DNA of 58,324 nucleotides from IMG/VR virus record IMGVR_UViG_3300003886_000004, positions 1 through 58,324 of that record; one strand, given 5' to 3'. Positions 1,115-40,913 of the stretch are shown here, in pieces. This DNA comes from a virus. Taxonomy: Duplodnaviria; Caudoviricetes. A program made the translations under genes and the position numbers. Position 1 is the stretch's first letter. Each line of letters opens with the position of its first letter. The notes below the pieces were generated by a model. The model was not told the DNA's origin, did not search any database, and saw only the letters and a program-made list of their open reading frames with translations.

Positions 1115-1116
1115 TT

Positions 1117-3565: not shown

Positions 3566-3596
3566 GGGTTCTCCAATGTAAGAAGGGGGAAATTCA

Positions 3597-4019: not shown

Positions 4020-4064
4020 TTTGTATCTTTCTGTGTGTAGTAAATAAGGGGGGTAAGGGATCAA

Positions 4065-14301: not shown

Positions 14302-14519
14302 TTTCTATTCCTTCCGTGTAACTCAGTAACAAACAAACGTGAATCCTCAGTTACCAGTTCCCATTGATAACCTAATAATTTTCTGTACCCTATTTTCAAT
14401 TGACAAAACCAGAGGTCTATTTCATCTAAGTAACCTTCTGAGGTTGAATCGAATTTTCTTTGATCAATTACAATTGTCTTCCCAGACGAGATAGAATGTT
14501 GCAGAACTTGATGATTCAT
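14277..14519 (-). CDS. Hypothetical protein
   Basis: ATGA-coupled to the upstream methyltransferase. Confidence 0.5.
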   Translation of the reverse strand: MNHQVLQHSISSGKTIVIDQRKFDSTSEGYLDEIDLWFCQLKIGYRKLLGYQWELVTEDSRLFVTELHGRNRKWKRNNKS

Positions 14520-15382
14520 TTGATTTCCCACAGGTAGTAAGTGTTTCCATCTTCATTATACTTGGTTTGATCAACCTCAGGAATCCTATGGTTGTAAGAC
14601 AGAATCTTTGTACCTACTTTCAACTTTTTCAGTTTAGGTATCACCTCAGCCATCACTTGTGGGTACAGGAACATTGTTACCATTGTAGCTCTTGAAAGAT
14701 CCTGATACTTAATGTCCCCAGTAATCACAAATACCTTCTTAGGGCTTTCAGCTTTAACTCTTGCTCTAGCTTTATCAGCAGTGATTGGGTTAATCTCAAT
14801 TCCTATTCCACGACAGCCGTACTTAGATGCAGCAGTGATTAGTATCCTACCGTCACCACATCCTAGATCATACAGATAATCCTTAGAAGTAGGATTCAGT
14901 ATTCTTAACATCGTATCAACAGCCTTCTGAGGGGAAGGATCTAATTGATTCAAAACGTTGTCTGGGATTATTTGTTGTACGGGTACTGAATTATCAACCA
15001 CCAAATTAGACCGAATATGGTTGCCCATGACAGAGCGTCTAGTACGATCTTCAGGATTAGTGATGTCATTTGAGTAAACCTTTTGAGGTTGGGCTAGTTG
15101 TGGTAAGGGAACTCGATGATTAAGTACAGGACTAGACATATTAGGGACAACATGAAAAGATCTGTTAGGATTTGACTGAGGAAATCGTACATTAGGTATT
15201 CTCCTTTGTGGAGGCTGTGAATACATTGAACCAAATAAACGGTTACACATTGCACAGTTAAGGTTGTTGCAATATCGACCGTTACTGTTTTTGGTGTACC
15301 CTCTTCCGTTACGTCGAAGCCATTGAGCGTCTACTACAGAAGGAGTTAAAAGTAACCAGAAGGCTAGTAGTAAGTATCTCAT
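14516..15382 (-). CDS. SAM-dependent methyltransferase (FAM173/DOT1-like protein-lysine MTase type) with N-terminal signal peptide and Cys motif
   Basis: YDLGCGDGRILI, GIGIEI and DLSRATMVTMFL motifs; N-terminus MRYLLLAFWLLLTPSVVDA followed by YCNNLNCAMC. Confidence 0.8.
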   Translation of the reverse strand: MRYLLLAFWLLLTPSVVDAQWLRRNGRGYTKNSNGRYCNNLNCAMCNRLFGSMYSQPPQRRIPNVRFPQSNPNRSFHVVPNMSSPVLNHRVPLPQLAQPQKVYSNDITNPEDRTRRSVMGNHIRSNLVVDNSVPVQQIIPDNVLNQLDPSPQKAVDTMLRILNPTSKDYLYDLGCGDGRILITAASKYGCRGIGIEINPITADKARARVKAESPKKVFVITGDIKYQDLSRATMVTMFLYPQVMAEVIPKLKKLKVGTKILSYNHRIPEVDQTKYNEDGNTYYLWEIK

Positions 15383-15390
15383 CGTTTTTC

Positions 15391-16038
15391 CTATTTGTAA
15401 TGGGCTGACCAAAACCAGGCATCATTGACACCACGTACTCTAGCTCTAGCCACAAGTTGTGATTCAGGAAGTTCACCATACCAACAGTGATTGGGACGAT
15501 TGAAATCCCAAGAATATCCTGTCCCTGAGTATGTTGTTCCAGGTGCATTACCTAGAGGATGACCACCGTCTCGATGAAGGTGATAATCAGCACCTCTTTC
15601 AGCAATGATTGTTGCTTCACGTAAAGCATGTTGATAGGTGTCAGTCCCCTTACCTACAATGACAGTTAGAGTTTGAGAGGGTTGGGGGAGAATGTGGTAT
15701 TCTGTACCTTGTACTGATTGTAAATGTGGATGTTCTCTCTGTAGTGTTGGATCAATTTCTATGTTAGGTATTTCCTGCATCTCACAGTATTCAGGATTGT
15801 TTGGGTTTTCATGGAGAACCTCAGACACTTTATTTGTATCACCTAAAAACTTTACCCACAGTCTTCGTAGTTCTGGTGGAACGTAGATTGTTGGTTTTTC
15901 TTCTTTTGGCATCCAAGGATCAGATCGAGTTTGAGTCCAATGAACAGAAAAGATTTCCTTGCTTCGGGTAACCCAGACTTGATTGTTGTAATCGCCATCA
16001 TCCTTTGTCGCTTTTCTATCTGTTATCCAATCGCTCAT
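15391..16038 (-). CDS. Hypothetical protein, C-terminus weakly CAP/SCP-like
   Basis: His-containing C-terminal domain (HALREA...GGHPLG...SGTGYS...NHCW); fold call is tentative. Confidence 0.5.
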   Translation of the reverse strand: MSDWITDRKATKDDGDYNNQVWVTRSKEIFSVHWTQTRSDPWMPKEEKPTIYVPPELRRLWVKFLGDTNKVSEVLHENPNNPEYCEMQEIPNIEIDPTLQREHPHLQSVQGTEYHILPQPSQTLTVIVGKGTDTYQHALREATIIAERGADYHLHRDGGHPLGNAPGTTYSGTGYSWDFNRPNHCWYGELPESQLVARARVRGVNDAWFWSAHYK

Positions 16039-16245
16039 AATTGTTTTGTTTGGTAAAGGGGGTTCAGGTTGGGTTAGTGTGGGTCAGTCATTTGTTAGAT
16101 ATTCCAAAACAAAAACAGAAAGTATCAAACAAAAAATAATTGTGAACATTCTAGTTTCTCTGAGATACACTCCTTGACTAAAAGAAAGGGCATTTCACCC
16201 TTATGCTGTTATCCGCAGTAGTACGGGTTACTTGTGTGGTTTGTG

Positions 16246-16602
16246 TTAACCTCGACAGCCACCACCAATAAGACCCCAACGAGTGCTACGTCTGGTATTC
16301 CAACGATCACGACGTCGTTCAATGCGGTCCCTACGTCGATCGTAACGAGCGTTTCGAGGAGTCGAGTAAATTACCCCCGAAGTATAGGAACCCCCACTAG
16401 AACCGTTGCTAGGGGCCACGTAACCACCTTGGCTACCGTAAGACACTACCGAGAGAGTAGGGTCAACTTGAACAGTTGTCTCAGTGATCACGGATTGAAC
16501 CTTCGTACAATTTGTACACTCTGCTTGAACATACCCTGTAGTCATCACAACTACAAACAGTGCAGCAATACCAAAACAGAGCCAATTGAAACGTTTAGAC
16601 AT
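16246..16602 (-). CDS. Secreted low-complexity Gly/Ser/Arg-rich small protein
   Basis: Signal peptide ending VQA, CTNC motif, GS-rich middle, Arg-rich tail; GAGG RBS. Confidence 0.7.
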   Translation of the reverse strand: MSKRFNWLCFGIAALFVVVMTTGYVQAECTNCTKVQSVITETTVQVDPTLSVVSYGSQGGYVAPSNGSSGGSYTSGVIYSTPRNARYDRRRDRIERRRDRWNTRRSTRWGLIGGGCRG

Positions 16603-16653
16603 TTTCTTTTCCTCAGTTACAAGTAAGTTTCTCAGGTACTTCCTGAGATAACA

Positions 16654-16760
16654 TGAACAGGGCAGGACTCGAACCTACAGTACCTTTGAGCACATGCCAG
16701 AAGAGGTGACGACACACCGCTTAAGCGTCTAATGCCAATTGCCAGCCTCTTCACCTGTTC
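16654..16760 (-). ncRNA. tRNA-like RNA with atypical interior
   Basis: Acceptor stem GAACAGG/CCTGTTC and T-arm GTAGG-TTCGAGT-CCTGC; 107 nt; no canonical anticodon arm found. Confidence 0.6.
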
Positions 16761-16762
16761 AT

Positions 16763-16898
16763 TAAGCAAGGTAGAGATTTGCACTCTACAGCTTTAAGCC
16801 CCGAAGGAAAGAATCCCCTACACTTCACAATCTTGTTGCCAAGATAATCGTGTAGTTAACCCGGAGAACTTTGCGTTTACCTATTCCGCCACTTGCTT
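16763..16898 (-). ncRNA. tRNA-like RNA with a large structured insert replacing the anticodon arm
   Basis: Acceptor AAGCAAG/CTTGCTT; Leu-type D-arm TGGCGGAATAGGTAAACGC; T-arm GTAGAG-TGCAAAT-CTCTAC; insert has CTACAC/GTGTAG and ATCTTG-GCAA-CAAGAT stems. Confidence 0.7.
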
Positions 16899-17023
16899 AC
16901 TATCAGTCATCTAACGTCTTCTGAAATGATGGAACTAGCACTGATATACCAGAGATACCATTTTTTATCTTCCGTCTACGTTAGTGCCCTTGTATAGCCG
17001 AAGGGTATGCTTACTTTATGTAA

Positions 17024-17072
17024 AGACCAGGAAAGGAATTGAACCTTTACTCTCAGCCACCAGGACTGGTCT
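17024..17072 (-). ncRNA. Minimal tRNA-like element (acceptor stem plus T-arm only)
   Basis: AGACCAG/CTGGTCT stem and AAAGG-TTCAATT-CCTTT arm, with only about 16 nt between them. Confidence 0.4.
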
Positions 17073-17090
17073 ACAACACCAAGAAACGAA

Positions 17091-17582
17091 TCAACAATCA
17101 GCAGTTTGTAAAGCACCCACTACCTTACCTTCTACTGATTCTTCACCGTTCTGGTATAACCAACTAGACTGAACCTTTTTCTTTGATGTAGGTTTACTGT
17201 ATTGAGACTTCTTTGTGTGTGCAGGTTTTGTACTTCTAGGGTACAGCAGTACGTTGGTTGCAAACCCGCAAAGAGTGATCACGTTCAAATGACTTGTGAT
17301 TTGAATATCTAACAGATCTTCAGAGAAATCTTCCTCTTCCAAAGTTTTCTCCCAATCACGTTGGGTCAGAGCTACCCCTTCATAGAATATTTTGTATACT
17401 AGGTGACCACGTCCAACCAGCATTTCTAGGAGAAACAGAGGGGCTACTTTGTTGCTTCCTTTCACGTGTCTAGGCTTCTGAGAACCCAGGGTTTTATCCC
17501 TGCATTCAAAGTACAATTCGTTGTGTTTTCTAATGATTCTGTATAACACAGTAATTTCCTCAGTAAAAACTAACCAAAACAT
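17091..17582 (-). CDS. Hypothetical protein
   Basis: Co-oriented ORF; start uncertain. Confidence 0.45.
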   Translation of the reverse strand: MFWLVFTEEITVLYRIIRKHNELYFECRDKTLGSQKPRHVKGSNKVAPLFLLEMLVGRGHLVYKIFYEGVALTQRDWEKTLEEEDFSEDLLDIQITSHLNVITLCGFATNVLLYPRSTKPAHTKKSQYSKPTSKKKVQSSWLYQNGEESVEGKVVGALQTADC

Positions 17583-17617
17583 TCAATATCTATCTCAAAG
17601 ACAATTCAAGATAAACA

Positions 17618-17866
17618 CTAATACCCGCAACGTTCATTATACACGGTACCCAGAGGATCAAAATTATCTACAAAATCGGATTCATAATCTTGTACCACAG
17701 TAAAGTAATCCCCAGTTGTTCTAAGTGTATCACTTGTCACCTCAGTTATCCATGTAGAGATAATTTTCAAACTTTTCAGGGAATCTAAAAACTCTCGTTC
17801 AGCCAACACTATTTTCAGATTAGTATCAGGAGTAACTAATTGAATCTGTAACCTAACTTTGTTCAT
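17618..17866 (-). CDS. Hypothetical protein
   Basis: ATGA-coupled to the PP-loop gene; GGAGG upstream. Confidence 0.55.
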   Translation of the reverse strand: MNKVRLQIQLVTPDTNLKIVLAEREFLDSLKSLKIISTWITEVTSDTLRTTGDYFTVVQDYESDFVDNFDPLGTVYNERCGY

Positions 17867-18678
17867 CCTCCAGGTCTCCCTAATTTCTTTTTGTTCAACA
17901 TAGGATCCCCAGATCTTTTAGCAGCATGAAGGAGTCTAAATTGATGACGAGCTAACTTAGCTTCAATCAGAGGAAAGAATAATTTTACCCGTTCATAATC
18001 CTGGGGGAAAAGTTCTTTCATTTTCAAGAGTGTGCCTACCAGAGGCAACCCTTCTAAACTTGTCTTGTCCAACAGGTAATCCAAACTCAATGAGATATCA
18101 AACCTAGATATGTATTCAGTTACTTGTGTGGGTTTCCAGTCCCAGATTGGGTAAAAGATTTGTTTGTCGTCTTCTTGACCGAGACAGCGATTCATTTGAG
18201 TAATACGATTGACATTGTCAAACATACAAATTCCCTTAGCCAACCACACAGTATCCTCAGCCATCCCCAATGCTTCACCATGTAGGTCAGCAACATTGTC
18301 AATCGTGTAGTCCCAAAAATCAAGAGCGTCCAGTAATTCAAGATCTTGAAAGGGTTGATAGATTCGATTAGCAAGATTGTATTGATTTTCCCCTTGCAGA
18401 TATCTGTGTATTGAGGTTTCAAACCATTGTTCATAATACGTCAACCCTTTATCAACATATTGAATACCTGGGATTGCAGAACAATGAAAAGGTCTTATTG
18501 TGTCAAACCCACAATCAAGAAGATATAGCCAACAGGCTAAAGAATCTTTACCTCCAGAAAAGGCTAGAAGAGTTACGCCACCTAAATACTCACAGAGAGA
18601 CTCGCAAGTTTTCTTAGACGCAACAGTACCAGAGAATAATCCATTCTCATCAGTTAGAGGTTTTGGAACGTGTTTCAT
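17863..18678 (-). CDS. PP-loop adenine nucleotide alpha-hydrolase (PAPS-reductase-like)
   Basis: LLAFSGGKDSLACW PP-loop and FYPIWDW motif; lacks the C-terminal ECG(L/I)H of CysH. Confidence 0.85.
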   Translation of the reverse strand: MKHVPKPLTDENGLFSGTVASKKTCESLCEYLGGVTLLAFSGGKDSLACWLYLLDCGFDTIRPFHCSAIPGIQYVDKGLTYYEQWFETSIHRYLQGENQYNLANRIYQPFQDLELLDALDFWDYTIDNVADLHGEALGMAEDTVWLAKGICMFDNVNRITQMNRCLGQEDDKQIFYPIWDWKPTQVTEYISRFDISLSLDYLLDKTSLEGLPLVGTLLKMKELFPQDYERVKLFFPLIEAKLARHQFRLLHAAKRSGDPMLNKKKLGRPGG

Positions 18679-18698
18679 TCATCAATTCCTGGTAGTGG

Positions 18699-18735
18699 AA
18701 AATAAAAGGGTATACAGCGGTTAAACTGTATACCC
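18699..18735 (-). terminator. Intrinsic terminator
   Basis: 10-bp stem GGGTATACAG/CTGTATACCC followed by TTTTATTTT on the minus strand. Confidence 0.8.
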
Positions 18736-18752
18736 CGTGTAAAAGAGTTAGA

Positions 18753-18872
18753 TCAACCAGAACCTTTTCCAGAAGATTTACCGCCTTTCTTCTTTGCTTT
18801 TCTTTTTGCTTTCTTAGCAGCTTTCTTTCTTGTTTTCTTCTTTGCTTTCTTAGCAGCTTTCTTCTTTGCCAC
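18753..18872 (-). CDS. 39-aa Lys/Ala-rich histone-H1-like peptide with Gly/Ser C-terminus (not in the ORF track)
   Basis: GTG start with GAGGTG RBS; MAKKKAAKKAKKKTRKKAAKKAKRKAKKKGGKSSGKGSG*; followed by a terminator. Confidence 0.8.
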   Translation of the reverse strand: MAKKKAAKKAKKKTRKKAAKKAKRKAKKKGGKSSGKGSG

Positions 18873-18921
18873 AATAACACCTCATGTTAATCGAGAAACA
18901 AACACAGTAAATTGATTTCAG

Positions 18922-19368
18922 TTAAAGTTGAACATCTACATCGTTAATCACCTCCCTATCAACCATATCAGCCAACTTCTGACTAAATCCTAGTTTGTGA
19001 GATGGTAACTCACAAGGGGTAACAGACAATCCAACCTTTTCCGCAAATCCTTCTCCATCGTAATAGTCACCGTAAGCATTTGCAATACCTTCGAGTTGTT
19101 CAGTGAATTCTAGCTTCTGAGAATAGGTTTGAAATACAACCACCACATAGTGATCTACTTCAATTTTATCGTTTTGCCTGTCAGCATCTACTTTCCTCTT
19201 GGCTCGAAGTCTTTCCTTTTCTAATTCTACCATACGTAGATTCTCGGCTAAAGCAACATCAGACAAGGTTATCTCACTTGCTTCAGGGATCTTGGGAATA
19301 CTTGCCCCCGTATGTGTTTTACGTGTTTTTGACTTAGGGCTAGAAGTTGTACTTTTCTTATTTGTCAC
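18922..19368 (-). CDS. Conserved phage protein resembling the C-terminal domain of ParB-like partners of PP-loop genes
   Basis: DHYVVVVFQTYSQKLEF...YYDGEGFAEKVG motif, recognised from memory. Confidence 0.55.
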   Translation of the reverse strand: MTNKKSTTSSPKSKTRKTHTGASIPKIPEASEITLSDVALAENLRMVELEKERLRAKRKVDADRQNDKIEVDHYVVVVFQTYSQKLEFTEQLEGIANAYGDYYDGEGFAEKVGLSVTPCELPSHKLGFSQKLADMVDREVINDVDVQL

Positions 19369-21643: not shown

Positions 21644-22201
21644 TCAATCTTCATTCATTGCATCAGCTTCAGATTGTCGATCTCTATTTGATTCGTCTTC
21701 TTGTGTGAATTTGTGAGGGTATCTAATTTTCAACTTATCAATGTTGCACGTTAATACATCACTGACAGAAAAACCATTTAGATTACAAAGATCACCGAGA
21801 CTATGGTAGATTCTGATTAAAGAACCTACAATTTCCTTATCAGTAAATTCTTTATCGTGCCCATAATAATATCTTTTTTCAATGAGAGAAGAGAATAAAG
21901 AAATCTCTTTAATCAATCTAAAGCTCGGGTCTCCTGGTTGATACGTCCTAAGTATCGACCCTCGAAAATTCATTGCATTCATTGCTTCAGCAACATACCA
22001 AAACATATCACCTAATTCCTCTTTTTTATTTGTAACAGAAGTAGCACTTTGTAATTCAAATAAATCACCCTGCATCCCAATACAAGCATGTAACAACCTT
22101 ACCCCTCTGAATGGAAAATCAACATCTGTTATTCTCGATAATGAATCTACTTGGTTACATTCAGTACGTTGAACCAAAAATTGGTATTCTAAATGATTCA
22201 T
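21644..22201 (-). CDS. MazG-like dNTP pyrophosphohydrolase
   Basis: RLLHACIGM, KEELGDMFWY and NIDKLKIRYP motifs; start moved to MNHLEY. Confidence 0.85.
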   Translation of the reverse strand: MNHLEYQFLVQRTECNQVDSLSRITDVDFPFRGVRLLHACIGMQGDLFELQSATSVTNKKEELGDMFWYVAEAMNAMNFRGSILRTYQPGDPSFRLIKEISLFSSLIEKRYYYGHDKEFTDKEIVGSLIRIYHSLGDLCNLNGFSVSDVLTCNIDKLKIRYPHKFTQEDESNRDRQSEADAMNED

Positions 22202-22202
22202 C

Positions 22203-22391
22203 TTAATTCTTTCTTTGTACAGGACATAGATCAGGGTTAGGTAGTAAAGCGATAACTGGAATGATCGAGTACAATTTTGGTCCTGCACTACTAACCATGA
22301 TTCTGGAAATCACTACATTTTGTCCGATTGAATACGAACTATTTTCTATTGCTTCTTCTGGTGTATCAGCTTCAACTAATTCATAAATCAT
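22203..22391 (-). CDS. Hypothetical protein
   Basis: GAGG RBS; VEADTPEEAIE motif. Confidence 0.5.
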   Translation of the reverse strand: MIYELVEADTPEEAIENSSYSIGQNVVISRIMVSSAGPKLYSIIPVIALLPNPDLCPVQRKN

Positions 22392-22445
22392 AACTACCTC
22401 TTTGGTAACATTGAAAATGGTAACGTGTAAAAATGGTATCTGTAT

Positions 22446-23009
22446 CTAGTACATTCTAACCTCCCAGAATACTGTATTGAAATTTGGTAAAGTTCCCCAG
22501 TAACTCGAATAGGTTGAAAATTCAATTACATGATCTGGATAACGATCTAACAATTCACGTAACCAATCTTGTGAATTCGGACACAGGTAGGTATCTAACA
22601 AACACCTTGCAAAGATACCATGAACATAGTTAGACTGTTTTGCTAAAGCATCCCGCATAGGTAGAGCAATCGAACTATACGTAACCAACAATCCTTTAGA
22701 AGACAAAGCAACCTCACCTTGAATGAGTGTATCTTTTGTCGGAGCCATTTCTGAAACATAAAAAGTCTCTAGTGATTCTTCTGAATATCTAAGCCTGATC
22801 GATTCAAATGTTTGATTGTAATGAGTATCCCCACCAATTATTTTGTTTCTCAGATGAAATAAAGATTTTGAAGGTGGGAATTCAAATTTGAAATCATCTA
22901 AAAATACAGAAACAGATTCCCAAGTAGGTCCAGCATTCCCAAATTCACCTAGATTGTACCTACGAACAAAATCCAATTTAGTGGTTACTGGCGGAAAAGA
23001 TTCATTCAT
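22446..23009 (-). CDS. Putative ATP-grasp-like protein
   Basis: Motif order FHLR...YVSEM...IQGEV...VIEFS...VFWEVRMY resembles ATP-grasp/PPDK-N folds; coupled to the hydroxymethylase. Confidence 0.45.
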   Translation of the reverse strand: MNESFPPVTTKLDFVRRYNLGEFGNAGPTWESVSVFLDDFKFEFPPSKSLFHLRNKIIGGDTHYNQTFESIRLRYSEESLETFYVSEMAPTKDTLIQGEVALSSKGLLVTYSSIALPMRDALAKQSNYVHGIFARCLLDTYLCPNSQDWLRELLDRYPDHVIEFSTYSSYWGTLPNFNTVFWEVRMY

Positions 23010-24126
23010 CAGTATATCCTGTTTGTTTACGTTCGTGGGATAATCTTCTTTTTTCCATCCAGGTTACCCCTACATATTTCAGATCACACCAATCAGGTAA
23101 TTTATACAAGTGCTCAAAAGCTGTTGGGAATACTTTTCTTTTGTAAGCGAGATAAGCTAAACACATTGGAGCAGCTACCTCACGTAAAAATTTTGAATCC
23201 CAATTTTGGTGCATTCTCCAATGATCTGTATTTACAAACCTTGTACATTCATCAAGAAAACTTAGATAGCTTGAATTTACACAGATTGGGCGTAAATAAA
23301 TTCCTGTTTTATCAGAAATATAAAGATCTCTACTTGGATCTGAATATATTTTAGTCGGTGTTAAGTATTCTAACCCTTTATCTTTTTCTGTGTAGATATG
23401 TAGATTGTTAGTTATCTGGTGATAAACACCTAAATCAACTTTCAACATATCAGCTATAAATTCCTGGAGAAAAGAAAAATGGAATACATTGGCTCCCAGC
23501 ATCCCCCAGATTAGGTCATTGCTCCTATTGAATACAGTCATGTTCAATTTGTTGTCTAGGATTTCAAACACTGCACTTAGGTTACAAGGTATGTCTTTTC
23601 CTCCTCGGTATCCGGTTTCCAGATCATTAAACCCGTATTCGTTTCTTTCTTCTTGTTGTTCATCTGTTAACTTACCAAATTCTTCAATCGAATGACGGTT
23701 TGAACTATCCCACATTTGTAATACTGCTCTTCGATCATTTTTATTTTCACGTAAAACATCTACAATTCCTGAGATCTGGTCAAACCCTAAACCAGTCCTC
23801 CAACGATGGCCATAAGCCCCGTGAAAAGTTTTTCCATCGTCACTGTAATTCTGGATATTACTATTGTAGTAGCTTAATGCTCTTACATCGTTACTACCTG
23901 CCAACATCCAAAGAGACTCAAAGAGGTGAAAGAAAGGATTACAGTCTCGAATAGGATTAAACAGTACTCTCTCTCTAGGTTTTTCAAACGTAACGATCAC
24001 TGGACCATTAACACGTATAACAGAACCATTCCTAGAATCACTTTTTGTTGTTGGAATATCCCCGTCAGCAATCCTTTGGATTAGACCGTTGAAAGCTTGA
24101 TTGACATTTCTGTAGGTTAAGTGCAT
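23002..24126 (-). CDS. dUMP hydroxymethylase (thymidylate synthase superfamily)
   Basis: NPFFHLFESLWMLAG, DIPCN, NRSNDLIWGMLGAN (Asn at the dUMP-specificity position) and NLHIY; clustered with 5-hmU kinase and transferase genes. Confidence 0.88.
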   Translation of the reverse strand: MHLTYRNVNQAFNGLIQRIADGDIPTTKSDSRNGSVIRVNGPVIVTFEKPRERVLFNPIRDCNPFFHLFESLWMLAGSNDVRALSYYNSNIQNYSDDGKTFHGAYGHRWRTGLGFDQISGIVDVLRENKNDRRAVLQMWDSSNRHSIEEFGKLTDEQQEERNEYGFNDLETGYRGGKDIPCNLSAVFEILDNKLNMTVFNRSNDLIWGMLGANVFHFSFLQEFIADMLKVDLGVYHQITNNLHIYTEKDKGLEYLTPTKIYSDPSRDLYISDKTGIYLRPICVNSSYLSFLDECTRFVNTDHWRMHQNWDSKFLREVAAPMCLAYLAYKRKVFPTAFEHLYKLPDWCDLKYVGVTWMEKRRLSHERKQTGYTDE

Positions 24127-24127
24127 C

Positions 24128-24715
24128 TTAATTTTCCTTGACGATTTCAGTTAATTCTTGTTTCAGTATTTCAAAAGATTTTGATGCTAATTCATATCTG
24201 TGATTTCCTTGGTGAGGGAGTAAAATACTTTTACCTGGTGATTGGGTTCCTAAAAACGCAGAAGTGTTAGAGATTGAATCATCGATCAACACCGTACCTG
24301 GCTTTGAAAACAAGTATTTATGTTCCGTGATTATCAATCGTCTAGTAAAGTCTGAATCAATGTTTCTTTTGTACCACTCTATTTTTCCTTGGAAACAATC
24401 AACAGTAGGAAAAGGTTTAGTCAGAATAAACCAGTCATGCCCTAACTCAGTTATTAAAGAAAGGATCTTATCACAATCAGGAAGAGGATTCAGATTACGC
24501 CAAAATCCATTTCCTAGATCATTGATAACAGATATCATTTCTTCTCTCGTATATCTATCATCTGTTCTCCCAAACAAACTATCTAAAGCCTCAACAATAC
24601 TCCAGGTTCCTAGGGATCTAAATGTTTCCAAAGTTTTTCGGTTGATACCATAAAGATCACAAACCCCCCCGGTAAAATCACAAATCACCTCGTCCATATC
24701 CACATAGATAATCAT
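24128..24715 (-). CDS. HAD 5'(3')-deoxyribonucleotidase (NT5C-like)
   Basis: YVDMDEVICDF, ILTKP and VLIDD motifs. Confidence 0.88.
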   Translation of the reverse strand: MIIYVDMDEVICDFTGGVCDLYGINRKTLETFRSLGTWSIVEALDSLFGRTDDRYTREEMISVINDLGNGFWRNLNPLPDCDKILSLITELGHDWFILTKPFPTVDCFQGKIEWYKRNIDSDFTRRLIITEHKYLFSKPGTVLIDDSISNTSAFLGTQSPGKSILLPHQGNHRYELASKSFEILKQELTEIVKEN

Positions 24716-24812
24716 TACACTCTCTCCTTTTACGAACAATTTTAGGGTATCGGTTGGAAGTTGTATTTGTTAGAATACCTCACCTCTCAAATTATACCCA
24801 CTGGAAAAACAA

Positions 24813-25130
24813 ATGAAATTGAGAAAACCGCAACATCGAATCCTACAGTTTATGGTTCGCCATTATCAGGTAACAAGAAAACAGATATCGACCAACGCAA
24901 AAGTTGATTATGCAATGTTGACAGAATATCTTGGGGGTCAGGATAAAGAGAAAAGATTGTCGGTTGCCAAAAAGATTGGATTTGAATCATTGATTGATCT
25001 TGATCTAATAGTTGCTGAAAGATTAGAAATTAAAAATCGTTATGTTGTCCATTACAGTTTGTCTAAGTCTGGGAAAGATCTAGCAACTTCCCTTTTCGAC
25101 AAGCAGACAACAAATGTTGAGCAGTCTTAG
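24813..25130 (+). CDS. Winged-helix (MarR-like) protein on the opposite strand
   Basis: LRKPQHRILQFM...TRKQIS...SLIDLDLI...YSLSKSGKDLA; fills a gap with no minus-strand ORF. Confidence 0.6.
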   Translation: MKLRKPQHRILQFMVRHYQVTRKQISTNAKVDYAMLTEYLGGQDKEKRLSVAKKIGFESLIDLDLIVAERLEIKNRYVVHYSLSKSGKDLATSLFDKQTTNVEQS

Positions 25131-25860
25131 ACGTTTTGAATCTTTTGAGACTTTTGTACAGTTTGTTTGTGTCATCACCAATTTGATATCTCTCGTTCAA
25201 ATGTGATTTCCATTTACATAAAACTGTTTCCACTTCTTGGACCCCCACCATTCTTTTGTATCCAGGGGGAGCATAGTAACGATTCAATTCTTCTGAGATT
25301 GTTTCAACTGCCCACTCACTCAACTCTACATTGTTATACACAGGAACGTCTAATTCTTCAGCTAGTCGTCTAGCCCCTTCTAAAGGTGAACTAAATAAGA
25401 ATACGTTCTCAACTGAAAATTCGATATTGACTATTTGTAAACACTCTAGCATATCTGCGATCTTGAATCCGATCCAAGGTCCAAACCCAACCCAACCTAC
25501 TACAGTATTCATAACCTGTTGATAAGTTAACCTATCATTTTCAATGAAAGGAGAAACCAATCTATCTAGTCCTACCGAGGTCAAGTAGTCGATTGAGTTA
25601 GTAGCTAGGTCACCCCGAAAGTGTCTACGTTCGACCCCACGGGGCACCCACGTTGTTTGTGCAGCCCTTTTCATGGTCTCCCAATACTTTGGAGAGTCTA
25701 CTATCCAACAAGCCGTACCAGAGTCGTAGAAACACCAATAAGCAAGCAACCAACGGTACAACTTGAACCCTTTCAAATTTGATTCAAACAGCATTACATA
25801 GATTGGATCTAAATCGTTTGAATCTAATAAATCTTTTCCAAATTCACCACAACTAGACAT
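25063..25860 (-). CDS. Amino acid:DNA transferase (aGPT-Pplase2)
   Basis: DLDPIY, WLLAYWCFYD, RGVERRHFRG, GFGPWIGFKIADM and QEVETVLCKWKSH motifs. Confidence 0.88.
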   Translation of the reverse strand: MSSCGEFGKDLLDSNDLDPIYVMLFESNLKGFKLYRWLLAYWCFYDSGTACWIVDSPKYWETMKRAAQTTWVPRGVERRHFRGDLATNSIDYLTSVGLDRLVSPFIENDRLTYQQVMNTVVGWVGFGPWIGFKIADMLECLQIVNIEFSVENVFLFSSPLEGARRLAEELDVPVYNNVELSEWAVETISEELNRYYAPPGYKRMVGVQEVETVLCKWKSHLNERYQIGDDTNKLYKSLKRFKTSKTAQHLLSACRKGKLLDLSQT

Positions 25861-26704
25861 GTTCTGTTTCGATCCTTATTTTATTTGCTGACCATCCGGC
25901 AGCAATCGTTCCAAGTTTTCCAGAACCGGTAGCTACCCAGATATTCTTATGCAGTTCAACACACAAACAAGGATCGTCACCAGTTGGACAATATGGGCGT
26001 AAGCCGACCTTAGTTTTCTTTGGTGGATTTTTGAATCCTAAAGCTGTTTTACATCTGTCTTCACATTCTCTGGTTTTTGCTCTCGTCCAATTTGCCTCTA
26101 AGATAGCTGTACCGTCTCCGATCCAAATATCTCTACCTTGTTGGTGAGCTACAATCTGTTTGTAAGGTGCCCAATGTTTAATGAATGCTGATTTTATTTT
26201 TCCCCGAAAACGAAAACTTACTCCCTTTTTTTGTTTAATGATTACAGGTAAATCAAGAATACTTGGACTCCATACCCCCGCTGCAACAATAACTAATTTT
26301 GTACGTACCTCTTTGATTATTCCTTGATCGCTGTACAAAACAACAGGACAATTAGAATCTCTTGCTACAACATCAGTAACCTTGCCAGAGGTGATATATT
26401 TTGAGAGGTTTCTTTTTATTGAATCAGGATTAACTCTGGATACGTAAGTAGTCCCACCTAAAGGTTTTAATCTGTGTTCTTCTTCAACTACTCCCCATAG
26501 ATCATTTAAGGTTTCCACAGAATCCTCATAATCATCAGAACGCATACTGCTAACCCAAGAAGGTTTGAAGTGGCCACCACTAGCGTTAGATCCTGATTGC
26601 TCTTGTTGATCATCTAACAGTAAAACTTTTCTACCTTGGGTTAACAAGGATTTGAAAATCGTACCTCCAACTATTCCAGCACCAACTACTACTGCATCAT
26701 ACAT
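25853..26704 (-). CDS. FAD-dependent oxidoreductase (DAO/ThiO-like) of the thymidine-modification cluster
   Basis: VVVGAGIVG Rossmann motif, GSNASGG, VAAGVW, GLRPY. Confidence 0.88.
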   Translation of the reverse strand: MYDAVVVGAGIVGGTIFKSLLTQGRKVLLLDDQQEQSGSNASGGHFKPSWVSSMRSDDYEDSVETLNDLWGVVEEEHRLKPLGGTTYVSRVNPDSIKRNLSKYITSGKVTDVVARDSNCPVVLYSDQGIIKEVRTKLVIVAAGVWSPSILDLPVIIKQKKGVSFRFRGKIKSAFIKHWAPYKQIVAHQQGRDIWIGDGTAILEANWTRAKTRECEDRCKTALGFKNPPKKTKVGLRPYCPTGDDPCLCVELHKNIWVATGSGKLGTIAAGWSANKIRIETEHV

Positions 26705-27263
26705 TGTGATTCCCTAATAATCGACGTACTATTTTTTTAGTTGCTTGATTCTGTGATACACGATAACAATGTACAGGTGTAAATTCAAATTTAGTTCTGG
26801 TTCTTTCTATCACACCAAACCTACGACGTGTGTTTCCTTCATCTAAAGGTTTATCATTTCCCTTTTCCTCTCTTCTTTTTTTGATTCTGTCAATACACAC
26901 TTCAATATCTGTTGTGAGATAATAAAGGTGTGTGATGGTTTCAGTTAATTTAGAAGTCCATTTCACATCTTCAGAAAGCATCAATCCTTCACAGAGAATA
27001 TCATACTTTCTCAGATCTAACATTTCGAGAATCTCATAAACTATTCGAGAACTACCTAGAACATCACAACCAGCACAAGGGGATTCGTAGTGAGACAACA
27101 CCACGATAGGTCGGGTTCCTTCTAAAGAAGGTCTGAGATACCAAACAGGATTTTTACGTCCTTTGAAATATCTTGGTTCAAATTCCCCTAGTTTCTCCAT
27201 TACTGATTTCATTACAGTGGATTTCCCTGCTCCACTTGTTCCTCTGATTTGTACAATCATCAA
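26697..27263 (-). CDS. P-loop 5-hydroxymethyluracil DNA kinase
   Basis: QIRGTSGAGKST, AGCD, LCEGL and CIDRIKKRR motifs; cluster context. Confidence 0.82.
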   Translation of the reverse strand: MMIVQIRGTSGAGKSTVMKSVMEKLGEFEPRYFKGRKNPVWYLRPSLEGTRPIVVLSHYESPCAGCDVLGSSRIVYEILEMLDLRKYDILCEGLMLSEDVKWTSKLTETITHLYYLTTDIEVCIDRIKKRREEKGNDKPLDEGNTRRRFGVIERTRTKFEFTPVHCYRVSQNQATKKIVRRLLGNHNV

Positions 27264-28154
27264 TCAAACCCCTTTGTATTTTCGTTTCGATCTACCTTGA
27301 TCCCAGAGAACCCTTTCATATTTATCCCACTCACACAGAGAATGTTCAATTTCTCTTAGCTCAAAGATTGGAAGATCCCACAGTGACTTAGACGAATTAG
27401 CTTGATCTAATAAATCTGTGATAAAATCTAATTCATTTTCCAGAGGAGGAAGTTGGTATGAATTTGAGTCAGTATCGAAAGGAACTTCATGAATCCTATA
27501 CAACCCTCTCGTTGCTCCTGGTCCAACATTGCACCACGTATTGACATCATAAGCATCTTTCAAAATATCAGTATGCCTCAGGTCACATACAATTTCGTAA
27601 GCCATGAAAGATCCGAGACCGTCAAATTGTACAAACGTATCTTGGAAATTTTCAAGAGAACAATCAGCACCTAATTCTCCCATCATCCAGTGTCTATTGT
27701 TCCACACTTCAGTCAATCTATCACAGATGTTAACGTACTTAGGAACTCCCTGGGAAGAAGCAATCATGTATGCCCCTGTAAACAGTCTATCCCCTCGATC
27801 TTTGAGACTCTTCAGCAATTGCTTAGCGTTAGCCTCATTCCATTTTACAGTTAACCCTTCACATACTAGCATTTCACCAGTAGGATGAGGTAGGTTAAAC
27901 CAACGAAAACAGATTGTAGCAAATACAACTTTAGGACTATCTTTCAGTGGATCACGTATGTACTTGCGAAACCACTGAGTAGTCTTATCGTTCTCTCGGT
28001 ATGGGTTAGTGAAAAAGTTATTCTGTAAAACTTCATCGTCAGTCCAAGGTTTGATTATCCCTTTCTTTCTTTTCAGATAGATCTTGTTCCTTTCCTTTAT
28101 CCAATAAAAGAACCTGTCAATAGGTTTCATCTTTTTGACTTTGCTAGTTAACAT
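27264..28154 (-). CDS. aGPT-Pplase1 family protein (HhH-glycosylase-like base-modification protein)
   Basis: WIKER, WTDDEVLQ..FFTNPYRENDK, FRWFN, FTGAYMI, FMAYEIVCDL, GPGATRGL and EIEHSLCEWDKY motifs. Confidence 0.88.
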   Translation of the reverse strand: MLTSKVKKMKPIDRFFYWIKERNKIYLKRKKGIIKPWTDDEVLQNNFFTNPYRENDKTTQWFRKYIRDPLKDSPKVVFATICFRWFNLPHPTGEMLVCEGLTVKWNEANAKQLLKSLKDRGDRLFTGAYMIASSQGVPKYVNICDRLTEVWNNRHWMMGELGADCSLENFQDTFVQFDGLGSFMAYEIVCDLRHTDILKDAYDVNTWCNVGPGATRGLYRIHEVPFDTDSNSYQLPPLENELDFITDLLDQANSSKSLWDLPIFELREIEHSLCEWDKYERVLWDQGRSKRKYKGV

Positions 28155-28380
28155 CAGTAGTCTCCAATCCTTGTGCGTACTTCACATGGTGGGGATAATT
28201 TTTACTCCACGATTGTTGAAGGAGCCAGAACCAATAAGTGTCAGGGATATCTTTTAACTTATAACCTTTGTAAGTTCCCCAGGTCATAATTGATTGATCA
28301 TGTAACAGAATAACGTTACTCTGTTTGATGGTTTCGTTTTGTTCAAGTAGTTTGTTTCGATTTAGATTACAGTGTGGCAT
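28144..28380 (-). CDS. DUF3820-like small protein
   Basis: MTWGTYKGYKLKDIPDTYWFWL motif. Confidence 0.65.
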   Translation of the reverse strand: MPHCNLNRNKLLEQNETIKQSNVILLHDQSIMTWGTYKGYKLKDIPDTYWFWLLQQSWSKNYPHHVKYAQGLETTDVN

Positions 28381-30472
28381 TTTCTCCCCAACTAGTTTCG
28401 TGGTAGTCAATTCCTACAGTTAAAGGAACATTGATATCGTTCCCTATATTTTCCATTATACTCTGAATCATTTTTACCTTTCCTAAGTTACGTTTGTTAG
28501 GTCGATACGGAAAATCTAAAACAAGTTCATCGTGTACCTGCATAACAATGTGGTAGTCGAGCAGATCTTTAAGATACTCATACACGTCTACCATAGCTCG
28601 AACCATGACCCAACATGCTGTACCTTGAACGTGATAGTTCAAAGGGATTGTAGGTGATATTTTCCCCCAAGAAGTTGTAGCACAGTAGAGAGGGTATCCT
28701 TGATCCCCTACAGATGAATCAGGAATAGTTTCTACGTAACCGTGTTCATTGGCAAAGTTTATCCAATACTGGTTTAACTTCTCTTGTTTCTTGAATCTGG
28801 CTTTTAATAATCTGTAACACCCTAATCTACGGAAAGTAGCATTTGCTGTAGCTTCTTGTGCCCCGTATTGAATAGCAAACCCTCCATTTTTACACCACTG
28901 ATACCAAGTAGATTTGTATAGATCTTTTATCAGAGTACCTATTTGTTGGGGTCCAACGTCTTGTAAATGTTTGTTCCAAATATCAGGATAGATTGTAGAA
29001 AAGTTCAAAAGATGAACAGAACCAAAATAAGGAGGTTTGTCGGAATATTCAAATAAGTCTACTAATTCAGATTCTTTTGATTCGTAAGCAGGAATACGTA
29101 ACTCGATGTTGTTGTAATCTAATGACCACCACTCTCTACCTGGACTAGGTCCAAATGCGTATCTAAGATTTTTACCCTGTTCATCTTTTTGTTTTGAAAT
29201 AACCTGTTGACTGGGGTTCTTAGATGACCAACGAAGTGTACTTGTTCCTGTCGGGTTTAATGACGGATGCAGACAAAACCAACCTTTATCAGAAGTTTCT
29301 TTCCAAAATCTTACATAACTTTCCATGTAGTTACAAGAGACGTCTAATTTTCGTTTGATCTCTAGGCCAGTAAAAAACGTTTTTGCCAGTGATCGAGTTC
29401 GTGAAGTATCTTTGTACTTGCTTACTACTTCTTTAGTTAAAGATGGGTTACCAGTAGGTGTGTATTCCAGTGGTACCATATTGAGTAGATCGTGATGTGT
29501 TTCAGAACTATCTGTATACCCAAAAACAAAATTTAAGAGAGAATTGTTATTCCCTGATTTTGGTAATTCTAAATCGTACCCAAATGAAGCTGCTAGGTTT
29601 TTACATATTCTACCTTGTTTGTTTGATTCTTTCTGATACGTGTAATACAGTTCATCTAACTTATCTCTAGACAAAGTTATTCCATAATTCTGCATATCTG
29701 AAACTATATGCAGTAACTTGTTTCTGTATAAATACAAATCAGTTAAGTTTAATTCCTCTAATTTTTTACAGACCAATTGATAGAGGATCATTGTAGAAGC
29801 TGAATCAACGTTTGCATACGTAGAACAAAGATTGTACCAGGGGTGAAGTTTAGAAGACATTCCCTGTGTCCAATTTTTGTCTTGATCCGTATCCTCTTCA
29901 TCAATTTCAGGTAATAATTCAGGAGCTAATTTACACAAAGCTCGAAGCAACCACATATCCGATTTCCAAGGTTTCCCCTTTAATGAGGGCATCTGTGGAT
30001 CTGTTATAGTTGATATCCACCAATCAGGTAAAGAACGTCTAACAATGTTTCTTGCTTTTTTTGTTGCCTCTTTCAACACAGTCTCATACTGACGTATATT
30101 GATTCCAAGGTGGACCAAAACCATTGTAGCCAGATCTTTTGGCTGAGAAGAATTTAATAAATGTCCCCCTAACATCGTGTCTCTAGTTTTTCCCCAATCC
30201 CAATTATCTGTCCATCTTCTGTACTTCAAAGTTTTCAACATCGTTACATCAAATACAACATTGTGACCTACGGTAGTTTTAGCTTTTCTAAACTGTCTGT
30301 CTATTTGGGTTAAATGATGGTTTGGAATTTTAGGTATTCTTGTCAAAGGGTCAACATCCCATTCCCAAATATACTGGTTTTCCTGGTCATCACAAATTGT
30401 TACGATATAAGGCATTGAATTATGGTAAGGATCTAATCCAGTACATTCAGTATCAAAAGCTATATCAACCAT
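28367..30472 (-). CDS. polA: DNA polymerase family A with 3'-5' exonuclease
   Basis: FDTECTG and GHNVVFD (exonuclease); SLDYNNIELR (motif A), KNGGFAIQYG (motif B), QVHDELV (motif C). Confidence 0.93.
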   Translation of the reverse strand: MVDIAFDTECTGLDPYHNSMPYIVTICDDQENQYIWEWDVDPLTRIPKIPNHHLTQIDRQFRKAKTTVGHNVVFDVTMLKTLKYRRWTDNWDWGKTRDTMLGGHLLNSSQPKDLATMVLVHLGINIRQYETVLKEATKKARNIVRRSLPDWWISTITDPQMPSLKGKPWKSDMWLLRALCKLAPELLPEIDEEDTDQDKNWTQGMSSKLHPWYNLCSTYANVDSASTMILYQLVCKKLEELNLTDLYLYRNKLLHIVSDMQNYGITLSRDKLDELYYTYQKESNKQGRICKNLAASFGYDLELPKSGNNNSLLNFVFGYTDSSETHHDLLNMVPLEYTPTGNPSLTKEVVSKYKDTSRTRSLAKTFFTGLEIKRKLDVSCNYMESYVRFWKETSDKGWFCLHPSLNPTGTSTLRWSSKNPSQQVISKQKDEQGKNLRYAFGPSPGREWWSLDYNNIELRIPAYESKESELVDLFEYSDKPPYFGSVHLLNFSTIYPDIWNKHLQDVGPQQIGTLIKDLYKSTWYQWCKNGGFAIQYGAQEATANATFRRLGCYRLLKARFKKQEKLNQYWINFANEHGYVETIPDSSVGDQGYPLYCATTSWGKISPTIPLNYHVQGTACWVMVRAMVDVYEYLKDLLDYHIVMQVHDELVLDFPYRPNKRNLGKVKMIQSIMENIGNDINVPLTVGIDYHETSWGENATL

Positions 30473-31056
30473 TAAAGACTTTTCCAAATTGAAGACAGTT
30501 CAGTATTCCAACGATCAATGTAATCTTGTGCTGTGGTGTAAGGTGAAGAGTATTCTGTGCCTTGGATGGATAATTTCCAATCTGTCCAAGAAGCGTATTC
30601 ACCTAGAATGATTTTAGTTTCAACAAACTTATCCCTTTCTAATTTTGATTTCCTAACTAACCTGGCCTGGGACAAAACTTGATCCCCATGATCGATAATT
30701 GCAGCATACCTAGAGTGACTTAACTCATTCTTGGTCAATTGTGCCCGCAACCTACCATCGTGAATATAGCAATGACAGGCATGACAGAGAGGAACAGTCT
30801 CTAGGTATTCCATTATCCCTAGTTCATAATCAATTTGGTAGAGTTCATGACCTTCCAGATGATGATGAAATTTAGCCTTTAATTTATGTACACCACAGGA
30901 TGCACATCTGTAATTAGTTGAAGCGTATGCTTCTCCTCTGGTTTTATTCCACCACTTAGAACCTAATACTGTTCTAGGATTCATCCCGTGTAAAGGGAGA
31001 GGAATGTTTTCACTCAACAATACAGAAGGATTTAATTTCCAATCAGACATAGACAT
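30472..31056 (-). CDS. HNH-family nuclease
   Basis: CASCG...LEGHE...LCHACHCYIH. Confidence 0.8.
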   Translation of the reverse strand: MSMSDWKLNPSVLLSENIPLPLHGMNPRTVLGSKWWNKTRGEAYASTNYRCASCGVHKLKAKFHHHLEGHELYQIDYELGIMEYLETVPLCHACHCYIHDGRLRAQLTKNELSHSRYAAIIDHGDQVLSQARLVRKSKLERDKFVETKIILGEYASWTDWKLSIQGTEYSSPYTTAQDYIDRWNTELSSIWKSL

Positions 31057-34067: not shown

Positions 34068-35210
34068 TCACACGTTTGAAAGTTCAGGAAACATCTCAGT
34101 AGTTCTCACTAACCCAGTAGAATTGTTTGTAGCTAAGTAGTGATCAAGATCACCTGTAACTTTCTGAGAGATAGTATTCCAAATACCATAAGGGGTTCGA
34201 TAATGTCTTCTCTGGTGTTCAGGAAACTCTTTAGCTCGAACACTAAAATCGAAAGGACTGATTCCTTTGTTTTTTATACAGTATTCCCACCAAACAAAAT
34301 CATCACATAAGTTTCCCAAAATAGGATTTAGACATTGTTCTTCAAACTTATCTAAATCTGAATCAGTGATTCCCATATCCCAACGCATAAAAAAATAATC
34401 CTTATCATCTTCTATGATCTTTCTCAATCGATCGTGGTATTCCTTTTCGGTTTCAGGAGGTACATTTTTTGATCCTTTCAATTGTCTGATCGATCCTCGT
34501 CCACCTGATAAAGGACGTCTGACAACATTGTAATTGACCCCTTTTATTTTAGCTGTATTAGGTACCCCCTTAATCTGATTAGTCTTCATGTACTTTCTCA
34601 ATGCAACCAGATACGTACCTACTTGTAAATCAAACGATAAATTCAAAGATATTGAATCTTCGTCAATTGTTCCTTTGCTTTTGTTTTCAGTTAAGTAGAC
34701 TCCATCCCGTTTCCAATAATCAACCGCGTCCCATTTTCCCCGAAGTACAACTTCCAATCCCCCGATCGGATAATCAATTTTGAACTCCTTTTCTTGAAAC
34801 ATCGGAACCCTAGATTTTGAAGTATCTTCTTTCCAAACAGTTTCATAGATCGAAAATTGTAGTGTGCAGATCTTGAACCATTTATCAATCTGTTCTTGTT
34901 GATAAGGGTACTCAGTACATAACTCTGTGACAAACTTTTTTAGTTGTGGTTTCCAACTTTCACTACGTTTCAAACATTCTTCACAAAGATGCCACATCTG
35001 CCCGTATTCAATAGCATGATTGAATCCTCCTTGCTCTTTCAAGCCTTCAACAAACGTGATTCTAAATCTTTCAGGACAAACAAAATACTGACCTAGAATC
35101 GATTGAGTTACACCGTCTGTCAACGGACCTTTCCAAGCAGGAGTAAGGTATTCAGGGAGTAACTTGGCCCTTTTTGTTTTCTTCTTTAGTAGTTTAGACA
35201 GCTTTGACAT
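34068..35210 (-). CDS. PD-(D/E)XK exonuclease (Cas4/RecB-like)
   Basis: CPERF, GQMWH, RGKWDAV...ENKSK and QVGTY motifs. Confidence 0.82.
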   Translation of the reverse strand: MSKLSKLLKKKTKRAKLLPEYLTPAWKGPLTDGVTQSILGQYFVCPERFRITFVEGLKEQGGFNHAIEYGQMWHLCEECLKRSESWKPQLKKFVTELCTEYPYQQEQIDKWFKICTLQFSIYETVWKEDTSKSRVPMFQEKEFKIDYPIGGLEVVLRGKWDAVDYWKRDGVYLTENKSKGTIDEDSISLNLSFDLQVGTYLVALRKYMKTNQIKGVPNTAKIKGVNYNVVRRPLSGGRGSIRQLKGSKNVPPETEKEYHDRLRKIIEDDKDYFFMRWDMGITDSDLDKFEEQCLNPILGNLCDDFVWWEYCIKNKGISPFDFSVRAKEFPEHQRRHYRTPYGIWNTISQKVTGDLDHYLATNNSTGLVRTTEMFPELSNV

Positions 35211-40862: not shown

Positions 40863-40913
40863 ACCTGTTGAAGATTAATCACTACCACTACCATCATTAC
40901 TGAGGAACTAATT

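Follow-up and report, generated by a model that had tools for sequence, protein, structure and literature searches.

The window analysed here is the whole of IMG/VR record IMGVR_UViG_3300003886_000004, a 58,324-bp stretch of Caudoviricetes DNA, and all coordinates refer to it. Eight open reading frames (ORFs) on its minus strand, at 21644-28154 and tightly packed downstream of polA, were interpreted with moderate confidence as a minimal form of a thymidine-hypermodification operon of the glycine/flavin-lyase (PaMx11-type) branch, with 5-aminomethyl-2'-deoxyuridine (5-NmdU) as the end product. Because of homology and the retention of active-site residues, the putative pathway as far as 5-NmdU was regarded as well supported. 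Since no acetyltransferase, amidoligase, pyridoxal phosphate (PLP) or radical S-adenosylmethionine (SAM) gene was recognised in the window, 5-NmdU was predicted to be the final base, the nature of the end product being thus deduced from the absence of genes.

A first-pass annotation of this DNA had suggested that the cluster might make a new base, either free 5-aminomethyl-dU or a derivative of it. Free 5-aminomethyl-dU stands as the best guess, given the absence of tailoring genes. The term "new base" was too strong, because 5-NmdU is already the in vitro product of PaMx11 gp47 (PMC8989533). No paper reporting 5-NmdU as the end product of any phage was found in the text reached by a full-text literature search; one chemistry paper counts 5-aminomethyluracil, in loose terms, as a phage base (PMC11550810).

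Gene cluster and proposed pathway

The genes of the cluster, with polA given for context, were assigned as follows.

28367..30487, minus strand: DNA polymerase A (PF00476 E 1.1e-28, PF01612 E 5e-5; 40% identity to polA of G001, the nearest relative found)
27264..28154, minus strand: aGPT-Pplase1, the clade-1 paralogue, Pfam HMUDK_hel (PF18723 E 1.3e-45; phrog_2396 E 1.8e-55)
26697..27263, minus strand: P-loop kinase, probable 5-HMUDK (phrog_800 E 2.6e-16)
25853..26704, minus strand: putative flavin-dependent N-alpha-glycinylthymidine lyase/oxidase (NGTO) of the PaMx11 gp47 type (PF01266 DAO E 2e-18)
25063..25860, minus strand: putative amino acid:DNA transferase (aGPT-Pplase2, also PUGT), glycine type (PF18724 ADDT E 3.9e-18)
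24740..25062, no strand: spacer of 323 bp, at the position of the amidoligase-like gene and GNAT gene in the relative L005
24128..24739, minus strand: NT5C-type (HAD) 5'-deoxyribonucleotidase (PF06941 E 1.5e-12; phrog_2643 E 1.3e-11)
23002..24126, minus strand: thymidylate synthase (TS)-like enzyme, probable dUMP hydroxymethylase (PF00303 E 4.5e-19; phrog_5131 E 7e-101)
22446..23009, minus strand: 187-aa protein, predicted fold ATP-grasp-like (in neither a Pfam nor a PHROG family)
21644..22288, minus strand: MazG-like nucleotide pyrophosphohydrolase (phrog_229 E 3.8e-16; Pfam MazG 19.9 bits, with a cut-off of 22)

All eight genes proved to be real ORFs on the minus strand at the positions given by the first-pass annotation, and their identities were confirmed by the Pfam and PHROG scans. 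The MazG orthologue in L005 matched PF03819 with an E of 1.8e-9. Neighbouring genes mostly abut or overlap by 8 nt, the exceptions being the 323-bp spacer and one gap of 157 bp, and a single 88-aa ORF separates polA from the cluster. The scan for promoters and terminators returned fewer sites than were found in shuffled sequence.

The spacer contains a 105-aa ORF on the plus strand (24813-25130), which shares 68 bp with the 3' end of the transferase gene. It matched no Pfam family and did not resemble the ORF that L005 has on the opposite strand at this position.

The following order of reactions was proposed. The NT5C-type and MazG-like enzymes would deplete thymidine nucleotides, the former acting on dTMP and the latter clearing dTTP and dUTP, and the TS-like enzyme would form 5-hydroxymethyl-dUMP (5-hm-dUMP), so that 5-hydroxymethyl-2'-deoxyuridine (5-hmdU) would be incorporated by the phage polymerase. 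The P-loop kinase would then phosphorylate 5-hmdU on DNA, the Pplase2 transferase would exchange the phosphate for glycine to give N-alpha-glycinylthymidine (N-alpha-GlyT), and NGTO would oxidatively cleave the glycine to leave 5-NmdU. With no further tailoring, 5-NmdU, a free primary amine, would be the final base at a fraction of the T positions. The role of NT5C is presumed from knowledge of hydroxymethyluracil phages (PMC8989533), and that of the MazG-like protein is likewise presumed. The role of aGPT-Pplase1 is not established in the literature examined; its M6 homologue, gp55, was dispensable for making N-alpha-GlyT (PMC8989533).

Homology and active-site residues of the pathway enzymes

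In PaMx11, gp46 adds glycine to phosphorylated 5-hmdU, gp47 cleaves the resulting N-alpha-GlyT (315 u) to 5-NmdU (257 u), and gp48 acetylates the latter to 5-acetylaminomethyl-dU (5-AcNmdU, 299 u) (PMC8989533). Orthologues of gp46 (35% identity, E 1e-42), gp47 (32%, E 3e-35), the kinase gp49 (33%, E 1.2e-24), the aGPT-Pplase1 gp50 (36%, E 5e-49) and the TS-like gp51 (39%, E 7e-77) were found in the window by tblastn. The flavin enzyme further matched the solved gp47 (PDB 8z2o, "Flavin-dependent lyase") over residues 3-276 with an E of 2.2e-38. These matches agree with the PaMx11-like flavin branch that had been named at first pass.

An N-terminal GxGxxG dinucleotide-binding motif is present in the flavin enzyme. 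Nine of the 13 residues named for the PaMx11 enzyme (PMC11472151) are identical and two more are changed conservatively. The identical ones include the cage W51/Y180/Q182/K268, Y244 and R242 (PaMx11 numbering), the last of which is the proposed carboxylate binder of PaMx11 NGTO (PMC11472151). The transferase matched PDB 8z2m ("Glycinyltransferase", E 4.8e-39) and 25qc (E 1.9e-39), and it keeps the catalytic Cys215 together with the metal ligands Glu211 and Thr212 (window numbering). All six glycine-pocket residues of YuA Pplase2 (D24, E96, K159, K248, Y257 and D262; pocket according to PMC13458397) were retained, the donor determinants K248 and Y257 corresponding to K216 and Y225 in the window. 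Introduction of K248 and Y257 has been reported to turn a diamine transferase into a glycine transferase (PMC13458397).

Over its full length the TS-like enzyme shared 38% identity with YuA gp17, a putative deoxyuridylate hydroxymethyltransferase by annotation. Its best solved relative was the CMP 5-hydroxymethylase 5b6d (78 bits), thymidylate synthases scoring 42 bits or less, and it carries Asn where 5b6d has Asp. We take this position to set the preference for uracil or cytosine, Asn being presumably the uracil type. The TS-like enzyme is a probable dUMP hydroxymethylase, and the kinase, only 23% identical to YuA gp13, is a probable 5-hmdU DNA kinase (5-HMUDK).

Elsewhere in this phage, which is predicted to replicate with 5-hmdU, a protein of the uracil-DNA glycosylase superfamily is encoded at 35194-35745 on the minus strand (PF03167 E 1.2e-24); it has a counterpart of 41% identity in G001.

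Search for a finishing enzyme in the window

The Pfam scan took in 71 ORFs of the window, the ORFs at 47344-50028 and 56185-56493 being covered by six-frame searches only. Six-frame searches of the window with PF00583 and PF13673 (GNAT), PF04055 (radical SAM), PF00291 (PALP, for PLP enzymes) and PF05430 (MnmC2-type SAM methyltransferase) gave no hit at E<=1, and the best tblastn match of the PaMx11 acetyltransferase gp48 to the window had an E of 1.8. Additionally, hidden Markov models (HMMs) were built from the GNAT, amidoligase-like and low-molecular-weight (LMW) phosphatase-like proteins that adjoin flavin genes elsewhere; against 503 stop-to-stop six-frame pieces of the window they retrieved nothing, the best E values being 0.21-0.98. 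The absence of GNAT, PLP and radical-SAM genes reported at first pass was thus borne out over the window, and the profile searches, GNAT included, detected no acetyltransferase in it.

The possibility of a GNAT hidden among the family-less ORFs at 17091-17582, 15391-16038 and 18922-19368 or in the 187-aa family was rejected, the hhalign probabilities against a phage GNAT profile being below 1%.

A single methyltransferase is encoded in the window.

14516-15412, minus strand: class I methyltransferase

Its hydrophobic N-terminus resembles a signal peptide (judged by eye); a short motif rich in Cys and a disordered linker come next, and the methyltransferase domain is C-terminal. This domain matched solved small methyltransferases, including a protein-lysine N-methyltransferase, with E values of 1e-50 to 1e-55, and small cellular methyltransferases from many phyla shared 36-47% identity with it. 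As an MnmC-like finishing enzyme, which would yield a methylaminomethyl base, this protein was rejected as unsupported, since it was absent from all 48 flavin-bearing records searched; the protein-lysine methyltransferase type of its domain, its signal-peptide-like N-terminus and its disordered linker also disfavour such a role. At locus L105 a methyltransferase adjoins a homologue of the 187-aa protein, and its likeness to the window enzyme is that of the generic core (35% over 109 residues).

Occurrence of the minimal form among flavin-bearing loci

A search with a single flavin protein retrieved no relative; when four aligned flavin enzymes served as the query, 52 IMG/VR loci were obtained. 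With three loci from GenBank the survey came to 55 loci, in 54 of which the flavin gene was detectable. Tailoring genes (GNAT and/or amidoligase-like) were present in 38 of the 54. The commonest class (24/54) had an amidoligase-like gene, whether or not an LMW-phosphatase-like gene was also present; a GNAT was found in 12 loci and both GNAT and amidoligase-like genes in two. No tailoring gene was recognised in the remaining 16 loci, seven of which were compact clusters flanked by 2.5 kb or more of sequence on each side.

The amidoligase-like protein is about 300-375 aa long with a weak match to Pfam Amidoligase_2, and it is mostly followed by the LMW-phosphatase-like protein, the two being fused in L011 and L039. 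Its class includes loci L010, L012, L014, L018, L023, L026, L028, L030, L038, L040 and L114 as well as phage Simon.

Whole-record searches were made on 48 IMG/VR records, the short loci L042, L047, L049 and L051 being left out. PF00583 scored above its cut-off in 13 of these 48. It was absent from the whole records G018, G028 and G033, which are 96-100% complete and bear the minimal cluster, and from the complete genomes of the isolates Sonora, RHph_TM26 and Simon; PaMx11, as the control, was positive. A quick maximum-likelihood tree of the flavin enzymes showed the gene-content classes to be scattered (19 changes, with a minimum of 3). Four genomes lacking a recognised tailoring gene, RHph_TM26 among them, formed one clade with an approximate likelihood ratio (SH-aLRT) support of 100, which suggests a stable state rather than assembly gaps. 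Since the minimal arrangement recurs in 16 of the 54 loci, in near-complete genomes and in isolates, the window is not a singular case and apparently represents a recurrent, stable variant.

Locus L006 (record G002, 137 kb, 79% complete) carries flavin, transferase and amidoligase-like genes, and neither a TS homologue nor HMUDK was detectable in its 137 kb. This phage may obtain 5-hmdU by another route.

Thymidine-hypermodification enzymology is known for a few phages only, and the gene-content classes give testable predictions of natural bases. DNA with free aminomethyl groups would be expected for the minimal class, which has two cultured phages, and the largest class, that with the amidoligase-like gene, predicts an undescribed amide-linked base built on 5-NmdU.

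Nearest relative, completeness of the record and host

The nearest relative found, G001 (locus L005), is a complete genome of 72.9 kb with a flavin enzyme 47% identical to that of the window. The backbone is shared, with synteny of polA, Pplase1, kinase, transferase and flavin genes, NT5C, TS-like gene, 187-aa homologue, MazG and primase. In G001, however, the transferase and flavin genes stand in the opposite order, and after the latter come genes for a 315-aa amidoligase-like protein and a 176-aa GNAT (PF13673 E 7e-8), where the window has the 323-bp spacer. An amidoligase-like gene is also present in the second nearest locus, L006. Because both nearest loci carry tailoring genes, the window has probably lost such genes, or exchanged a cassette, in a lineage where further tailoring is usual.

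Every module of the G001 genome has a counterpart in the window. The ORFs cut by the contig ends (2-625 and 56895-58322, minus strand) are in frame with each other when the ends are joined, and the codon between them is a sense codon. As they share a frame, the record may be a complete, circularly permuted genome, an agreement expected by chance in about one case in three. A contig spanning the window end was not found among the metagenome contigs by an exact search with the last 50 bases. The N-terminal piece of the end-cut ORF carries a Laminin_G_3 domain.

Some parts of the window differ from G001 or stand apart. About 6 kb between the major capsid and head-tail connector genes (1-4064 and 56298-58324) are absent from G001 and include an S8 subtilase gene (2031-2957; PF00082 E 6e-47). 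A protein resembling phosphoadenosine phosphosulfate (PAPS) reductase (17863-18678, minus strand; phrog_2302 E 1e-10, Pfam match weak) is encoded in a stretch between primase and small terminase that lacks a counterpart in G001. An AAA_5 (MoxR-like) ATPase and then a DUF7192 protein are encoded at 39588-41771, in the only block of plus-strand genes.

The planctomycete host proposed at first pass was not supported, because the sole host-like gene, that of the methyltransferase domain, has relatives of about 36-47% identity in many phyla. The best 80 genomic relatives of the domain, all in this range, belonged to Acidobacteriota, Planctomycetota, Verrucomicrobiota, Proteobacteria, Cyanobacteria and Bacteroidota. 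Named matches include one Thermoguttaceae protein and "bacterium HR36", which is unclassified. No tRNA genes were found in the window.

The 187-aa protein and its phage clade

For the 187-aa protein (22446-23009), 597 homologues were collected at about 50% identity, none with a Pfam domain; the family has about 30 invariant residues, many of them charged. An AlphaFold (AF2) model built from 32 sequences reached a predicted local distance difference test score (pLDDT) of 94.5. Its structural matches were weak and mostly to ATP-grasp proteins, both in the PDB by Foldseek (E about 1e-3, TM-score 0.33-0.51) and in BFVD (E 4e-3). Comparison with PDB representatives by VIA-align gave the same result, with a best Z of 7.1 (rmsd 4.5, 148 residues) and none at Z>=8. 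The best match of the family profile to PDB sequences had an E of 0.055, the proteins being unrelated, and the ESM Atlas held no usable match.

Among 52 IMG/VR loci with a homologue of this protein (L057-L108), the TS-like gene lay directly upstream in 38; Pplase1 occurred in 31 and the transferase in 11, and none had the flavin gene. Because of this linkage, the 187-aa protein appears from its genomic context to belong to the nucleotide-pool half of the operon, coupled to the hydroxymethylase, and not to be a tailoring enzyme of the flavin branch. Its earlier candidacy as a branch-specific finishing enzyme was therefore given up. An ATP-dependent step at the nucleotide level, for example as a 5-hm-dUMP kinase, is the best guess for its role, rated as possible though not likely.

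The 52 loci come from phages of 50-80 kb with polA, Pplase1, a variable cassette, NT5C, the TS-like gene, the 187-aa protein, MazG and primase. The cassettes, situated between Pplase1 and the NT5C/TS-like genes (L057-L103), contained 114 unassigned ORFs, of which 60 representatives were scanned with Pfam. The matches comprised Radical_SAM, SPASM, PALP, further transferases, a TET-associated glycosyltransferase, an FkbM methyltransferase, an aldo-keto reductase, asparagine synthase with glutamine amidotransferase, inositol-1-phosphate synthase, a carbamoyltransferase, Mom, DAO and Amidoligase_2. This variety extends the combinatorial picture drawn in PMC8989533. Since the stretch from Pplase1 to the hydroxymethylase is so variable, the clade of the window phage forms a natural library of DNA-modifying enzymes.

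We considered it doubtful, although conceivable, that two things hold jointly, namely that virions of the minimal-variant phages carry free 5-aminomethyl-dU and that the 187-aa protein founds a new ATP-grasp-like enzyme family. If so, its step, perhaps the phosphorylation of 5-hm-dUMP or a second phosphorylation of 5-phosphomethyl-dU (5-PmdU) on DNA, would be common to all 5-hmdU cassettes of the clade. Free 5-aminomethyl-dU in virions, unreported in the literature searched, would then be the DNA twin of 5-aminomethyluridine (nm5U) of tRNA.

Alternative explanations

Several points weigh against 5-NmdU as the final base. According to PMC8989533, the PaMx11 pathway was rebuilt in vitro, and PaMx11 virion DNA was neither obtained nor analysed. 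The chemistry of each step is carried over from the enzymology of PaMx11, M6 and YuA, whereas the genes themselves show homology and active-site conservation. The kinase scored 23.6 bits against PF18748, under the 27-bit cut-off for 5-HMUDK, and a hydroxymethylase is not separated from a methylase by sequence. The window contains several ORFs of 80-215 aa without a detectable family, among which a divergent tailoring enzyme could be hidden. Both of the relatives closest in flavin-enzyme identity (47%) have the amidoligase-like gene, one of them together with a GNAT, and the cluster of the window could be a recent loss or a degenerate state. Finally, the record is classed as linear and was estimated to be 82% complete, hence a tailoring gene could lie in DNA that was not sequenced.

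That estimate, the GNAT and amidoligase-like genes beside the flavin gene of L005, and the presence of one or both in 38 of 54 loci would all suit an acylated final base (5-AcNmdU or another amide), formed by an acyl-transferring enzyme encoded outside the contig or supplied by the host. We regarded this as unlikely, since tailoring genes of the examined loci sit inside or beside the cluster, and that of the window is uninterrupted but for its 323-bp spacer. Moreover, synteny with the complete G001 reveals no missing module, the single frame of the end-cut ORFs fits a complete, circularly permuted genome (chance about 1/3), and near-complete genomes without any GNAT exist. A low probability was likewise given to the further modification of 5-NmdU, into an undescribed base, by an unrecognised enzyme of the window; candidates would be the 187-aa protein, in the role of an amide ligase, and the ORFs without a family at 15391-19368. 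An ATP-grasp fold is characteristic of carboxylate-amine ligases, several window ORFs have no family, and amidoligase-type tailoring is common in the flavin branch. Nevertheless, the homologues of this protein are linked to the TS-like gene and occur with the flavin gene in 0 of 52 loci (187-aa family), and L005 has the 187-aa protein in addition to an amidoligase-like gene and GNAT of its own. The hhalign result for the family-less ORFs and the 187-aa family (<1% for the phage GNAT profile) and the features of the methyltransferase at 14516-15412 (signal-peptide-like, protein-lysine type, absent from 48/48 flavin-bearing records) also argue against it.

The pathway might instead halt earlier or differ, with an inactive flavin enzyme, another substrate of it or another donor, and leave N-alpha-GlyT or a different base. 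Identity to the characterised enzymes is only 32-36%, and 4 of the 13 NGTO and 5 of the 20 PUGT residues named in the PaMx11 structure paper (PMC11472151) differ. This was judged quite improbable, as identity is complete for the residues that build the base cage, bind the carboxylate of glycine (R242) and define the glycine pocket, and the flavin and transferase genes, with their 8-nt overlap, are found together in most of the examined loci. An ordinary thymidylate synthase as the function of the TS-like enzyme, with the cluster a relic in DNA with plain T, is hardly credible. Sequence leaves room for a methylase, but the cluster genes are all intact and tightly packed, the TS-like enzyme is closest to relatives of the hydroxymethylase type, NT5C and MazG fit the exclusion of thymidine, and a 5-hmdU DNA kinase and transferase would have no substrate.

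Comparison with known systems

The 5-AcNmdU pathway of PaMx11 (Lee et al. 2021, PMC8989533; structures in PMC11472151) has orthologues of the same transferase, NGTO, kinase, Pplase1 and TS-like enzyme. PaMx11 differs in having a gp48-type acetyltransferase, none of which was found in the window. The gene order also differs, being Pplase1-kinase-flavin-transferase in the window and transferase-flavin-acetyltransferase-kinase-Pplase1 in PaMx11. Among the nucleotide-pool genes, NT5C, the 187-aa protein and MazG of the window stand against an HD-domain protein and gp53 of PaMx11, and the virus backbones are different.

The same minimal variant, consisting of flavin lyase, transferase, kinase, Pplase1 and TS-like enzyme, was observed in Stenotrophomonas phage Sonora and Rhizobium phage RHph_TM26. 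Their proteins are, however, 29-39% identical to those of the window and their hosts are proteobacterial. Sonora has an extra Nmad5, and in RHph_TM26 a gene annotated as polynucleotide kinase/phosphatase lies between the flavin and transferase genes. No description of either cluster was found in the literature searched, and modification is not mentioned in the Sonora genome announcement.

The FAD domain of the tRNA enzyme MnmC, which gp47 resembles (PMC8989533), performs the same chemistry on RNA by converting 5-carboxymethylaminomethyluridine (cmnm5U) to nm5U. The substrate of MnmC is RNA, whereas that of the window phage would be DNA, and the MnmC-type methyltransferase domain (PF05430) was not found in the window. 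The 5-(2-aminoethyl)-dU (5-NedU) pathway of M6 and YuA shares the kinase, glycine transferase, Pplase1 and hydroxymethylase, and its end product is a free primary amine (PMC8989533). In those phages N-alpha-GlyT is acted on by a radical-SAM isomerase and a PLP decarboxylase, neither of which was found in the window. The end product predicted for the window, 5-NmdU, would thus be a free primary amine, as are the end products of M6 and ViI.

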